A stretch of 64,000 nucleotides of DNA, from IMG/VR virus record IMGVR_UViG_3300045988_176782, positions 96,001-160,000 of that record; one strand, given 5' to 3'. The notes beneath the pieces were generated by a model. The model was not told the origin of the DNA, searched no databases, and saw only the letters and a list, made by a program, of their open reading frames with translations. The position numbers were made by a program, and so were the translations under genes. The stretch is from a virus. Shown here piece by piece: positions 47,889 to 58,042 of this stretch (its first letter is position 1; every line of letters begins with the position of its first letter).

Positions 47889-47958
47889 AAGACGCATACA
47901 GCCAATTATTAATGTAAGTTTTTATTAGAAATAAAATAATACAAATAATTCGCGTCTT
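47889..47958 (+). repeat. hairpin-family element c
   Basis: AAGACGC ... GCGTCTT closing stem; 5' box CATACAGCCAA. Confidence 0.6.
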
Positions 47959-47986
47959 GTATTCATTTTCTTCTTTTCTTTTTTAA

Positions 47987-48050
47987 AAGACATATACAGC
48001 AAAAGATTTTACATCGCATAATAGTTGGCTGATTACCTACAATGTGTCTT
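47987..48050 (+). repeat. hairpin-family element h
   Basis: AAGACA ... TGTCTT closing stem; 5' box ATATACAGCAAAA. Confidence 0.55.
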
Positions 48051-48059
48051 GAAAAAAAT

Positions 48060-48088
48060 TTGACAAAAATAAAAAATTAAATTATAAT
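48060..48088 (+). promoter_or_regulatory. sigma70/SigA-type promoter driving the ~600-nt RNA
   Basis: TTGACA-17-TATAAT. Confidence 0.7.
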
Positions 48089-48100
48089 AAATCCATAATA

Positions 48101-48700
48101 AAGAAAAGATATTTTTCTTTACTATATGATACCTCGGTGAAGAGCATTTGGCCAATGTGCCGAGAACAAACGGAAGATAGCCAGCTCCATATGATGGATA
48201 CATTATATGCCTGAGCCGCGAAAACAGTGATGTTTAGCGATAGGAGAAAAGACTCCAATATCAAGTTTGTGTGCTTTGTATTTCGCAATTTAACGCATAA
48301 TTTCTCTGGAGAACACAATAGAAAGCAGGATGAATAGTCCTGCCGAATCCAAGGCGCCGTTAGCTGGTGACTGTCGGGGAAAAGATACGGCCTTGGAAAC
48401 AACCACAAGTTCTTTTGTGATGAAACACAGAAATGTGATATAACAGAGGTTTGTAGTCTGAGTAGCTCAACACAGCGAACAAAAAGATGATACAAATTGG
48501 CTATTGTTTCTAATTTGCTGAATGGCTTGGGTGAAAAGTGCGAGTAGTCAATCTCGTTAGAGCGTTGTTTGGATAAAGAAGTCAAGGAGTAGCTAACTTG
48601 GCTCAGCCTTTATCTTCTCTATGGCGGAATAAGATTGAAGAAATCACAAAGTAGGGCGAAGGTCCATCAGTTAGTAGAGAAAAATATCTTTTCTTTTTTT
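48101..48700 (+). ncRNA. large structured non-coding RNA (~600 nt), family unassigned
   Basis: No coding frame; 18-bp end-to-end helix 48101-48118 / 48678-48695 then T-run; many internal hairpins incl. CTCGG/CCGAG, GCAGGA/TCCTGC, CCAAGGC/GCCTTGG, CACA-GAAA-TGTG. Confidence 0.6.
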
Positions 48701-48720
48701 TATTTATGAAAGGAGATACT

Positions 48721-48885
48721 ATGTATAGTAGTAGAAGATTCTTTAGTGAAGATGCTTGGGTTGATTTTAATGAATGGCTTAGGGATTTTCACGGTGAAAT
48801 TGTAAATGTAAGTCATACAACGGTTCCGATTGGAAGATTTGATTTCTGGATGGATATTGTGGTGGTTTATAAAAATTTGACATAA
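48721..48885 (+). CDS. small protein (54 aa)
   Basis: AAAGGAG SD then ATG 48721; below the ORF-track cut-off. Confidence 0.4.
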   Translation: MYSSRRFFSEDAWVDFNEWLRDFHGEIVNVSHTTVPIGRFDFWMDIVVVYKNLT

Positions 48886-48904
48886 AAAATAATTACGATA
48901 TAAT
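48877..48904 (+). promoter_or_regulatory. sigma70/SigA-type promoter
   Basis: TTGACA-16-TATAAT. Confidence 0.55.
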
Positions 48905-48933
48905 ATAGAAAATTAAGAAAGGAAGTTAAATCT

Positions 48934-49059
48934 ATGGAATGGATTTTAGGAATAGGTTGTTTGGCTTTTTTGTTTGTGTTGTATAAGCCGAATATTGAAA
49001 GAATGATTTACAGCATTAAAGATTGGATTGAGAAAGGAAATAAAGAAAATGACATTTGA
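48934..49059 (+). CDS. small membrane protein (41 aa)
   Basis: AAAGGAAG SD then ATG 48934; hydrophobic N-terminus. Confidence 0.4.
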   Translation: MEWILGIGCLAFLFVLYKPNIERMIYSIKDWIEKGNKENDI

Positions 49060-49498
49060 AACACTCCAGCAAGAAATGTATTCTGCTATGAAGTCCGGAG
49101 ATAAATTTCGTAAAGAAGTTATTTCTGGTCTTATTGCTGACATTAAGCGCGTAGCTATTGATAAAAATTGTCGTGATAATATTACTGAAGAAGTCGTAAA
49201 TACAGTTCTTCTAAAAAGTCGTAAGATGGCACAAGAAATGATTGATACTTGTCCTGAATCTCGTCTTGACCTTCTTGAACAATATAAACAAAACGCCGTA
49301 ATTATGGACGAGTATGTTCCTAAGCTTATTACAGACACAAACGAAATTGCAGCGATTATTAGTCAACTTTTAGTTAAGTTTAATGTTGAACCTGTCAAAG
49401 CTAATATGGGTAAGATTATGAAACTTTGTAAGGAAAACCTTAATGGCAAAGTTGATATGAAAATTGTAAGTAATATTGTAAAATCTATTTTAGTCTAA
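49049..49498 (+). CDS. GatB/YqeY-domain protein
   Basis: ORF track frame 49028..; ATG 49049; the layout MTFETLQQEMYSAMKSGDKFRKEVISGLIADIK...MGKIMKLCKENLNGKVDMKIVSNIVKSIL matches YqeY-like proteins (recalled). Confidence 0.7.
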   Translation: MTFETLQQEMYSAMKSGDKFRKEVISGLIADIKRVAIDKNCRDNITEEVVNTVLLKSRKMAQEMIDTCPESRLDLLEQYKQNAVIMDEYVPKLITDTNEIAAIISQLLVKFNVEPVKANMGKIMKLCKENLNGKVDMKIVSNIVKSILV

Positions 49499-49514
49499 AG
49501 AAAGGAAGAGAAAA

Positions 49515-57211: not shown

Positions 57212-57331
57212 GACGTGCCAGTTTCTCCGATGGCCGTATAACTTAGAAATAAGTGAAGCAGAAAGTAGCTATTTTGCATCGGAAAGCAAGTCTCCTTATT
57301 CCTTGCCATACATAAAAGAATAAGGACGCGT

Positions 57332-57408
57332 GCGCTGATAGCCCAATTGGCAGAGGCAATAGACTTAGGATCTATTCAGTGAGAGTTCAAATCTCTCTTG
57401 GCGTACCA
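57332..57408 (+). tRNA. tRNA with anticodon TAG (reads CUA/CUG Leu codons) on a class-I body
   Basis: Anticodon arm ATAGA-CTTAGGA-TCTAT (perfect), 5-nt variable loop TCAGT, T arm GAGAG-TTCAAAT-CTCTC, A73, encoded CCA. Confidence 0.7.
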
Positions 57409-57411
57409 TTT

Positions 57412-57475
57412 AAGACAGTTACAGCAAATCCTCAAAAGATGCGATTGTTAAAATTACGTTATTATTTACTGTCTT
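57412..57475 (+). repeat. hairpin-family element e
   Basis: AAGACAGT ... ACTGTCTT 8-bp closing stem; box TTACAGCAAAT. Confidence 0.6.
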
Positions 57476-57482
57476 GCTATTT

Positions 57483-57546
57483 CGGGATATAGTGCGATGT
57501 GCTGATAACATGCAAGTCGCGGATTCAAATCCCGCCCCTGTAACCA
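57483..57546 (+). other. tRNA-like 3' fragment / long hairpin ending in CCA
   Basis: T-arm-like GCGGA-TTCAAAT-CCCGC and ...CCCTGTA-A-CCA, but no matching 5' acceptor strand; alternative long hairpin CGGGAT...ATCCCG with CTGATAA loop. Confidence 0.3.
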
Positions 57547-57547
57547 T

Positions 57548-57623
57548 CGGGGAATACGTCAATTGGCAGACGGCTTGCTTTGGGAGCAAGCAGCTCTCAG
57601 TTCAAATCTGAGTTCTCCGACCA
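57548..57623 (+). tRNA. tRNA-Pro (TGG)
   Basis: Acceptor CGGGGAA/TTCTCCG, anticodon arm CTTGC-TTTGGGA-GCAAG, encoded CCA. Confidence 0.9.
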
Positions 57624-57676
57624 GAGGAATTTATAATCCTTTTTCATAACAAATGGGAGAATTTCTCCCATCTCCT

Positions 57677-57747
57677 TGGCCGCAAGTAGAGAAATGTTAT
57701 CTCACCGTTTTAACGGAGTAGGCGGTTCAATTCCGCCCTCGGCCATT
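57677..57747 (+). other. tRNA-shaped RNA with a mini-hairpin in place of the anticodon arm
   Basis: D arm GAGA-AATGTTA-TCTC and T arm GGCGG-TTCAATT-CCGCC are clear; acceptor pairs 5 of 7; the anticodon position is CCGT-TTTA-ACGG (4-nt loop). Confidence 0.35.
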
Positions 57748-57876
57748 AGTCGCCCTGGCACAGGGAGAAATGTGTTGCTCGGTAGGAGGGCATCCGCGGA
57801 GAATATACTATCCTACACAAAACAAAATGGGACTGATGCAGGTCCCACTTATAAGGGGAAGTTCCCCTTTTAATAT

Positions 57877-57962
57877 GGAGGAGTGGCGGAATGACGAGAC
57901 GCAGTTGACTCAAAATCAACCACGAAGAAACACTGAGAGTTCAAATCTCTTCTCCTCTACCA
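57877..57962 (+). tRNA. tRNA-Leu (CAA), class II
   Basis: Acceptor GGAGGAG/CTCCTCT, anticodon arm GTTGA-CTCAAAA-TCAAC, long variable arm, A73, encoded CCA. Confidence 0.9.
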
Positions 57963-57968
57963 GGCCTT

Positions 57969-58042
57969 AAGACAGATCAGCAATTTATTTAGATGAATGC
58001 ATTTTTCACCTCCAAGGTAGGCTCTTGGTTGTATCCTGTCTT
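57969..58042 (+). repeat. hairpin-family element f
   Basis: AAGACAG ... CTGTCTT closing stem; box ATCAGCAATTT; followed by GTTTTT. Confidence 0.6.

Follow-up and report, generated by a model that had tools for sequence, protein, structure and literature searches.

A family of helix-closed RNAs in phage tRNA regions is linked to a Ro60-like gene and may provide its Y-RNA-like partners

We describe a family of small structured RNAs that is linked in phages to a gene for a Ro60-like protein. The family was recognized in a 64,000-nucleotide (nt) stretch of phage DNA, hereafter called the window (IMG/VR record IMGVR_UViG_3300045988_176782, positions 96,001 to 160,000), where a first-pass annotation made from the letters alone had noted eight hairpin elements among tRNA genes. 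These elements are here named E1 to E8, and all feature positions are given in window numbering. Our analysis confirms that the elements represent a real structured RNA family under selection for its closing helix. Because they adjoin a gene for a Ro60-like RNA-binding protein, we infer that the elements serve as Y-RNA-like partners of this protein and are released by tRNA processing, a proposal to which we assign a probability of roughly 0.6. The first-pass annotation was partly right: it located the elements and recognized a structured RNA family but missed the Ro60-like gene, the tRNA-like bodies carried by relatives of the elements, and a ninth member in the window (53180 to 53300).

Closing helices covary around a constant box

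Each element has a terminal helix of 7 to 9 base pairs (bp) formed by the 5′ and 3′ ends of the RNA, with the single-stranded box (W)ACAGCAA located directly 3′ of its 5′ strand and an unpaired G located just past its 3′ strand. These parts, which we refer to together as the handle, enclose a variable, AU-rich interior of 40 to 230 nt. When the cores are aligned, the columns that stay invariant hold the helix's first A, ACAGC-A in the box, and the helix's last U with the G that follows. After later scans, the collection comprised 160 distinct elements with lengths of 43 to 248 nt (median 88), and the family as a whole is present in hundreds of phage contigs as well as in cultured phages.

An initial scan of IMG/VR for the 5′ motif yielded approximately 30 loci with a matching 3′ arm, often with several elements per locus. 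When viral contigs were scanned with AAGACNNNTACAGCAAA, 95 of the 163 motif sites lacked a 3′ partner; such sites are mostly chance occurrences and were filtered out. Covariation was then evaluated in a motif-only set of 68 elements, whose variable helix pairs were unconstrained at selection. Helix pair 6 is a Watson-Crick pair in 65 of the 68 and includes all four pair types, and pair 7 is formed in 64, among which there are eight U-G pairs and zero G-U pairs. This asymmetry fixes the transcribed strand, and G-U pairs are seen for the plus strand only. All three variable pairs are formed in 43 of the 68 elements, compared to 8.1 expected and a maximum of 17 in 1,000 partner shuffles. In a gap-free alignment of 76 cores, seven of the eight helix pairs exhibit double changes, the covariation score is 0.48 versus 0.13 for shuffles, and sliding the partner strand by one column reduces pairing from 96% to less than 40%. 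The motif-only test is the cleaner of the two because the 76-core alignment was preselected for pairing. Thus, the selection on RNA structure claimed in the first-pass annotation is upheld by strong covariation in the closing helix.

We also built the covariance model that the same annotation had suggested as a check. This model, called R2, was derived from 35 full-length short elements, all of which came from other phages; neither the window nor its close relatives contributed. When both strands of the window were searched, the eight copies were the top eight matches, seven of them significant at E values from 7e-7 to 0.02, and the best unrelated match scored 16.8 bits. A core-only model from which the interiors had been removed (R1) returned only noise, could not span real interiors, and was replaced by R2. 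Terminators with an added function, processing signals, and a small-RNA family had all been offered as possible identities for the elements, and the last of these was the correct choice.

Eight copies in the window

We defined the span of an element as running from the first base of its 5′ arm to the conserved 3′ G, and each of the eight start coordinates proposed earlier falls on the first base of a 5′ arm (Table 1). Six copies fit the pattern AAGAC-NNN-(W)ACAGC(A/C/T)A ... NNN′-GTCTT-G, and the stem pairs originally quoted (GACGCAT/ATGCGTC, GACAGT/ACTGTC, ACGGCAG/CTGCCGT, and GAUAC/GUGUC, the last with one G-U pair) are accurate. The layout described as common to all copies, a box and a stem with a 3′ GTCTTG, holds for most of them, but the copy at 57072 (E6) lacks the box and the copy at 55161 (E3) has another stem. 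The simpler pattern AAGAC-N40-70-GTCTTG occurs six times in the window versus 0.47 expected, a count reached by none of 100 shuffles, and five of these six sites are family members. Furthermore, the closing stem is present in the minimum-energy fold of all eight copies.

The enclosed interiors of the window copies are for the most part short hairpins rich in AU. Several copies have individual features. The stem of E3 is wholly unlike those of the other copies and yet is complementary, and its box and 3′ G are unchanged. E4 lies between tRNA-Trp and tRNA-Asn, and its interior folds into three hairpins with a cloverleaf-like appearance. The stem of E5 contains an A-C mismatch, a 6-nt spacer separates its 5′ strand from the box, and its interior carries a T-arm-like hairpin (GGGTTCAAATCCC). 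E6, which has no ACAGCAA box and an R2 score at noise level, is a borderline case that we regard as a doubtful or degenerate member. E8 is the final element of the tRNA array and is kept in the close relative L121.

The reported proximity to tRNA genes is borne out by the positions of the elements. Five of the eight begin 3 to 6 nt downstream of an encoded tRNA CCA (E7 starts 3 nt past tRNA-Leu), and four end 5 to 7 nt upstream of the next tRNA (E3 ends 5 nt before tRNA-Trp). E1 and E2 have no adjoining tRNA, and the 3′ end of E2 is located 9 nt before the promoter of a ROOL RNA. A relaxed scan of the window found no more copies of the form whose ends lie at the handle. Rfam, used at its gathering thresholds and at E ≤ 1, matched no family to the elements, and its YrlA model gave no match in the window at E ≤ 1.

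We agree that the elements lack coding capacity and that they are not CRISPR repeats, as the copies vary in sequence and length, have tRNAs between them, and are internally self-complementary. A proposed connection to a repeat near 5231 did not hold. No closing stem surrounds the box match at that site, and the exact 8-mer TACAGCAA occurs ten times in the window, this match included; therefore we consider the site a nonmember. The repeat itself is a noncoding sequence of approximately 250 nt that is present in two copies (5100 to 5500, plus strand; …GGAAAAAATCCGATGC…TTTTGAAGAAAAAAA…), one with the chance box match, and is unrelated to the hairpin family.

A neighboring gene encodes a predicted Ro60-like protein

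On the same strand, 3.3 kb downstream of the end of E8, there is a gene (61345 to 62853) whose product has an invariant DxSxS MIDAS (metal ion-dependent adhesion site) motif. An AlphaFold2 model of this protein has a predicted local distance difference test (pLDDT) value of 79. Its top seven fold matches in the PDB are all Ro60 proteins, with a probability of 1.0, E values of 6e-7 to 1e-4, and alignment over the full length. Based on the modeled structure, the product is predicted to adopt a Ro60-like fold composed of a helical ring plus a vWA (von Willebrand factor A) domain. A homologue from Listeria phage cka15 was assigned to Rsr by HHpred (PMC12282133).

Homologues of the window protein are found in 704 GenBank phage records, where they are labeled “RNA-binding protein,” “Ro-like RNA binding protein” (as in mycobacteriophages), or DUF2828. 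Carriers include Felix O1, P100/A511, Tsamsa-like Bacillus phages, T4-like vibriophages, and many mycobacteriophages, and Ro60-like (DUF2828) genes are also present in thousands of metagenomic clusters. We found no description of the element RNA in the literature on DUF2828 and Ro-like proteins.

Elements are linked to the Ro60-like gene across phages

Twelve element-bearing loci that were obtained from the DNA scan also hold the gene, which is usually located 20 to 900 nt downstream of an element. In a separate analysis, 80 loci were picked by the protein alone, with approximately 0.4 Mb of sequence on each side of the gene. These loci were searched with a descriptor consisting of a 7- to 9-bp helix starting with A, 0 to 7 nt, NCAGCWA, an interior, the complementary strand, and a G. 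The descriptor identified 115 elements on the gene strand versus 28 on the opposite strand (approximately 20 in shuffles), and 103 of the same-strand elements are upstream of the gene while 12 are downstream. Similarly, R2 at E ≤ 0.01 gave 48 matches on the gene strand and zero on the other in approximately 1 Mb. Overall, the element and the gene are linked in 50 of the 80 protein-selected loci and in all six of the cultured lineages that we opened, each of which has two to four elements close to the gene.

In Listeria phages P100 and cka15, three tandem elements with their own promoter occupy an unannotated gap directly upstream of the gene and end 74 nt before it; their stems are AGGAATC, AGAGAGC, and AGGAAGC, and their box is UAACAGCAAUUACUA. 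Bacillus phage Tsamsa has two elements, of which one is 92 nt from the gene and one has a permuted tRNA-like body. Three elements with their own promoter are upstream of the gene in Enterococcus phage EFDG1, and three tandem elements are just downstream of it in Staphylococcus phage CF9. The four elements of Salmonella phage Felix O1 (stem AGACC) reside in a downstream tRNA array, and the GC-rich Mycobacterium phage Zakai has three just downstream of the gene with stems like GGACGC. The box is constant across these lineages as the stems vary (AAGAC, AGGAATC, AGACC, AAGAAC, GGACGC), and it persists despite differing helices in phages whose hosts span three bacterial phyla. No element was found in the tRNA region of phage T5 (35 kb with 25 tRNAs), a stretch that has no DUF2828 gene.

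Two side observations concern these phages. The tRNA-Thr label in the Zakai locus (L205, positions 5540 to 5610) falls within a family element whose tRNA-like body is permuted. At E < 0.05 this sequence goes unrecognized by the Rfam tRNA model, and therefore the label is probably a misannotation. In the EFDG1 locus (L206), a conserved hairpin of approximately 30 nt (AGTTCCAACCTAACAGGTAGCCGGAAC-like) precedes each element (3385 to 3435, 3575 to 3620, and 3755 to 3800) and has no Rfam match.

tRNA-like bodies occur in two circular permutations

Many relatives of the window elements, approximately one-third of them, enclose a tRNA-like body, with parts in the order handle 5′ strand, box, small (V) hairpin, T-arm, loop-closed acceptor stem, D-arm, and handle 3′ strand, and some add an anticodon arm after the D-arm. 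A T-arm is present in 54 of the 160 members, or approximately one-third of the family, compared to 1.9 expected. Interiors are also enriched for hairpins of 5 bp and 7 nt with anticodon-loop syntax, most commonly CUUUUAA (eight cases), which is the loop of tRNA-Lys(UUU). The Rfam model for YrlA RNA gives subthreshold scores in the range of 28 to 45 bits, including 43 and 37 bits for locus L030, 32 bits for locus L117, and 45 and 34 bits upstream of the EFDG1 gene. In the window, tRNA-like domains are limited to the T-arm-like hairpin of E5 and the member at 53180 to 53300. None of the nine members was called a tRNA by ARAGORN or by the Rfam tRNA model.

The ninth member is ordered like a tRNA. 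Its acceptor stem (GTGGGGT/ACCCTAC) is open and leads into ACCA, and the molecule also contains a D-arm and a T-arm. Its terminal helix is closed as the hairpin TGAGTCTT-GGCA-AAGAGTCA (53216 to 53235) and is followed by the box TCAGCAATTA (53236 to 53245), and this helix-box module replaces the anticodon arm. The layout is an exact circular permutation of that in the tRNA-like elements. Approximately nine tRNA-ordered analogues were found in other phage loci, versus zero in shuffles. A loose search for this form gave mainly noise before the presence of a downstream T-loop was made a requirement. Because the helix and box are found closed as a hairpin in tRNA-ordered molecules, they behave as a module, one attached at the anticodon end of a tRNA-like body, wherever the ends of the molecule fall. 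Two circular permutations of one fold amount to a natural experiment that shows where the functional unit of the RNA lies.

The member at 53180 to 53300 also carries a G3-U70 pair, A73, and an encoded CCA. These features make up the alanine identity set, which is used by transfer-messenger RNA (tmRNA) as well. G3-U70 may have arisen by chance, since it was not seen in other tRNA-ordered members.

Relationship to known RNAs

Partnerships between a Ro60-type protein and stem-closed RNAs, some of which mimic tRNAs, are already known. The family reported here, its handle, its DUF2828-type pairing, its breadth, and its two circular permutations are absent from Rfam 15 and from the searchable literature. 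A close comparison is with YrlA-type Y RNAs (RF02553) of bacteria and phages, whose genes share a strand with a Ro60 gene no more than 4 kb away (PMC4201824). Like YrlA RNAs, the elements have a terminal helix formed by both ends, a short conserved motif near the 5′ end, and a variable module that in many members contains V, a T-arm, a closed acceptor stem, and a D-arm (PMC4201824). Also like YrlA, they are located a few kilobases from a Ro60-fold gene on the same strand, with several differing copies per genome. The two groups differ in that the family motif is ACAGCAA plus a 3′ G rather than GNCGAAN0-1G, and in that this motif directly abuts the terminal helix, whereas the YrlA motif occupies an internal loop above a basal stem. 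In addition, the partner gene of the family is of the DUF2828/DUF7788 type and not Pfam TROVE, and the window copies lack a tRNA-like body and have an Rfam YrlA score of zero, with relatives at 28 to 45 bits against a gathering score of 69. The elements are therefore not YrlA itself, given that GNCGAAN0-1G is absent.

Thermus phage phiLo produces a Ro60 protein that binds two upstream Y-like RNAs called Yrl1 and Yrl2 (PMC12135203). As in our system, a phage protein with a Ro60 fold is encoded near small RNAs, which in phiLo are two stem-bulge-stem RNAs just upstream whose binding is experimental. Unlike the elements, the phiLo RNAs carry a CGAA motif, the protein is a recognizable Ro60 homologue, and no tRNA-array context is described.

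A study of phage cka15 reported highly transcribed noncoding regions within 2 kb upstream of CKA15_055, the gene for the homologue of the window protein, and suggested that these are Y RNAs (PMC12282133). That study defined no RNA sequence, motif, or structure. Three tandem ACAGCAA elements occupy the unannotated 395-nt gap of cka15, which may correspond to one of the three expressed regions of PMC12282133. The small open reading frame (ORF) region CKA15_059 to CKA15_061 gives the most abundant phage transcript (PMC12282133). This region matches ROOL at 86 bits (gathering score 99; positions 2428 to 2920 of the cka15 locus, L202, and 3468 to 4019 of the P100 locus, L201). From this match, the main expressed region of the cka15 study appears to be a ROOL-like RNA.

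Stable RNAs are also present in other phage tRNA clusters, as exemplified by the species 1 and 2 RNAs of T4. In T5, RNAs I, III, IV, 1, 2, and 3, which are annotated as stable RNAs with unknown functions (locus L208, record positions 30284 to 33949), have long terminal stems, lie between tRNA genes, are cotranscribed with them, and are presumably freed by tRNA processing. They differ from our elements in lacking the ACAGCAA box and in having no DUF2828 gene in the 35 kb examined, and so represent a separate, analogous family. A further parallel is provided by circularly permuted tRNA-like molecules and by the tmRNA tRNA-like domain, in which a long helix stands instead of an anticodon arm. Our family occurs in two circular permutations, its tRNA-ordered form places a long helix at the anticodon arm, and the member at 53180 to 53300 has G3-U70 and A73 like alanine-accepting RNAs. 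Unlike these molecules, the family has no mRNA-like region, pseudoknots, or bulge-helix-bulge splicing motif.

Genomic setting

The window has a low G+C content (35.7%) and is part of a large phage genome whose nearest relatives are IMG/VR contigs of 165 to 168 kb. A megablast search with the 10-kb element region against GenBank phages returned zero matches. This region is a block of noncoding RNA genes on the plus strand (Table 1). It includes a phage-encoded copy of the abiF RNA motif, which is usually found upstream of abortive-infection abiF genes; the phage copy could be an antidefense decoy. The tRNA-array transcript is predicted to start approximately 6 to 8 nt from E3. The genes for a YqeY/GatB-like protein and an RNA ligase, which are candidate members of the element system only, are also paired near the Ro-like gene in P100. 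ROOL or GOLLD RNAs were likewise observed near elements in loci L044 and L034 and in P100.

Additional observations concern the tRNAs of the window. A tRNA with a CUA anticodon, reported by ARAGORN as “Pyl,” is located at 46742 to 46831 (plus strand) behind a perfect promoter. When TAG is read as a sense codon, plus-strand ORFs are joined (for example, 46963 to 47812, 18458 to 20678, and 58664 to 59966), with products that include a 283-amino acid (aa) homing-endonuclease-like ORF and a 740-aa ORF. Together, the CUA-anticodon tRNA and these ORF fusions suggest that part of the genome recodes the amber codon. Two plus-strand tRNAs were found by Rfam and missed by ARAGORN: a 116-nt tRNA with an insertion of approximately 45 nt (55903 to 56018; 48 bits) and a tRNA at 56992 to 57065 (39.5 bits). 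The array also contains five G+C-richer, ORF-poor spacers of 120 to 430 nt on the plus strand (55470 to 55900, 56247 to 56372, 56447 to 56709, 57212 to 57331, and 57624 to 57876). These have no Rfam match and may be further noncoding RNAs.

Table 1. Positions of the family members and neighboring features in the window
Feature	Position	Strand	Description
E1	47889-47959	+	Stem AAGACGC/GCGTCTT; box TACAGCC; 3′ G; R2 49 bits, E 7e-7; fold z -2.9
E2	47987-48051	+	Stem AAGACATAT/ATGTGTCTT (one U-G pair); box ACAGCAA; R2 38 bits, E 8e-5
E3	55161-55223	+	Stem ACGGCAG/CTGCCGT; box ATACAGCAAATT; 3′ G; R2 31.8 bits, E 0.0013
E4	55308-55386	+	9-bp stem AAGACGCAT/ATGCGTCTT; box ACAGCTA; R2 39.1 bits; fold z -4.3
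E5	56790-56889	+	Stem AAGAC-A-CAGG/CCTG-C-GTCTT; box AACAGCAAT; R2 25.5 bits, E 0.02
E6	57072-57131	+	Stem AAGATAC/GTGTCTT plus G; R2 17.7 bits, E 0.65; borderline
E7	57412-57476	+	Stem AAGACAGT/ACTGTCTT; box TACAGCAAAT; R2 37 bits
E8	57969-58043	+	Stem AAGACAG/CTGTCTT; box ATCAGCAATTT; R2 26.4 bits, E 0.014
Ninth member, circularly permuted, tRNA-ordered	53180-53300	+	Near-consensus promoter at 53020
Ro60-like gene	61345-62853	+	502 aa; Pfam DUF2828 and DUF7788; PHROG 850 “RNA-binding protein”
Promoter of Ro60-like gene	61276-61304	+	Near-consensus
abiF RNA motif	47840-47876	+	Rfam 49.9 bits (gathering score 37); 12 nt upstream of E1
ROOL promoter	48060-48088	+	Perfect sigma-70-type, TTGACA-17-TATAAT
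ROOL RNA, full-length	48109-48684	+	Rfam 295.8 bits; directly after E1 and E2
YqeY/GatB-like protein	49028-49498	+	Context; candidate member only
RNA ligase	49515-50843	+	Context; candidate member only
tRNA-array promoter	55119-55147	+	Perfect sigma-70-type, TTGACA-17-TATAAT (12/12 matches)
tRNA array	55229-57962	+	At least 13 tRNAs (ARAGORN and Rfam)

A model for the elements and its alternatives

According to our proposal, strong sigma-70-type promoters would drive transcription of the elements together with the tRNA array, and the elements would then be freed as tRNA-maturation by-products. The 5′ end of an element would be made by 3′ processing of the upstream tRNA and its 3′ end by RNase P cutting of the downstream tRNA, whereas E3 would carry a primary 5′ end. 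This route of release is suggested by the 3- to 7-nt spacers that separate elements from flanking tRNAs. The helix, box, and 3′ G would form a constant handle around a variable module, and this handle is the putative binding site of the protein encoded at 61345 to 62853, with the RNAs acting like Y RNAs. As is the case for Y RNAs, the interior could be an effector part open to exchange. The RNAs might gate the protein, or the variable module might serve to tether it to partners or substrates related to tRNA. The setting for these events would be a phage “RNA maintenance” region with tRNAs, RNA ligase, and ROOL RNA.

Several observations weigh against this proposal. The kinship of the protein with Ro60 is at the level of the fold only, with a template modeling (TM) score of approximately 0.48, and neither sequence and profile searches against the PDB nor the Pfam TROVE model gave a Ro60/TROVE match for it. 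Known Ro-binding motifs, namely GNCGAAN0-1G of YrlA and GGUCCGA of animal Y RNAs, are absent from the elements, and the window copies do not score with any Rfam model. A tRNA-like body is missing from most window copies, and thus the tRNA-mimic part of the interpretation is not directly applicable to them. Moreover, 30 of the 80 protein-selected loci have no descriptor element within 6 kb. Finally, the gene, tRNA arrays, and elements co-occur; because all three travel together, what the elements are linked to could be the tRNA array or a different shared neighbor instead of the protein.

The last point is central to the main rival explanation, in which the tRNA array uses the elements as modules for processing or stability and the Ro-like protein is not involved. 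Such modules would space tRNAs, guide RNase P, RNase Z, or RNase E, or protect intermediates, and the reader of the box would be an RNA-processing factor of host or phage. This would fit window elements that lie 3 to 7 nt from tRNA ends on both sides, the CCA found within 8 nt upstream of 28 of the 160 members, and a Ro-like gene that is always beside tRNA clusters, which would make its linkage to the elements indirect. However, the tandem clusters of P100/cka15, CF9, and Zakai adjoin the gene with no tRNA between, the elements of P100 and EFDG1 have their own promoter, E1 and E2 are not beside tRNAs, and the T5 array manages without elements. A spacer role also leaves the tRNA-like bodies and the permuted form unexplained, and on balance we judge this explanation to be rather unlikely. 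A second alternative is the idea that the elements are decoys or sponges whose mimicry of tRNA parts soaks up host nucleases or modification enzymes that target tRNAs. The helix and box would then be only a clamp, and the Ro-like protein would be unneeded or would be a chaperone. An invariant 7-nt single-stranded box in phages of hosts from Firmicutes to Actinobacteria exceeds what a clamp needs, and most window copies have no convincing tRNA part, even though the T-arm enrichment, the anticodon-loop-like hairpins with their eight CUUUUAA cases, and the nearby RNA ligases, tRNA array, and phage abiF motif are what a decoy would predict. This idea overlaps with our proposal and is compatible with it; as a replacement for it, we find the idea unlikely.

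We consider it very unlikely that the elements are functionless remnants, either decayed tRNA genes or a mobile element resembling a miniature inverted-repeat transposable element (MITE) that has spread in tRNA arrays. Inverted terminal arms around a variable interior, multiple copies per genome, and the tRNA fragments within many copies would be expected from such an origin. In contrast, decay or mobility would not account for arms that covary, G-U pairs that are strand specific, a box that is invariant across phages of three bacterial phyla, or a constant strand and position relative to one gene, and there are no target-site duplications and no transposase. We give almost no credence to the possibility that the elements punctuate the noncoding RNA region as intrinsic terminators or attenuators. 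A T-rich tract does come straight after the helix in the copies at 47889, 55308, 56790, and 57969. These four are only half of the window copies, and only 27 of the 160 family members (17%) have a T-run, a feature that the first-pass annotation had described as usual. Its suggestion of terminators with an added function is further contradicted by a terminator scan that calls none of the elements and by “loops” that are AU-rich and 40 to 230 nt long rather than small. Stopping transcription before each downstream tRNA would defeat the array, and the box and tRNA-like bodies would have no explanation.

Returning to the partner-RNA proposal, a broader extension is one that we hold tentatively and are inclined to doubt. 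Perhaps the helix, ACAGCAA, and G constitute a portable protein-binding handle that has been grafted onto tRNA bodies or parts in two permutations. This handle might be part of a very widespread and previously undescribed phage ribonucleoprotein (RNP) system whose other members would be the Ro-like protein, RNA ligases, tRNA arrays, and ROOL/GOLLD RNAs. Such a system could present tRNA mimics, either as decoys for host defense nucleases that cleave tRNAs or as recruiters that bring repair or decay enzymes to damaged tRNAs. If such a system exists, its RNAs would end at the handle or at an acceptor stem with CCA.

Implications

Unexplained “stable RNAs” of phage tRNA clusters have been known since work on T4 and T5, and Ro60-like phage genes have so far been without a defined function or RNA partner. 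The family definition given here lets annotators stop labeling some of these elements as tRNAs or small ORFs. If the elements are the partner RNAs, their definition by a helix, an ACAGCAA box, and a 3′ G would make both the DUF2828 question and the stable-RNA question testable in tractable phages.

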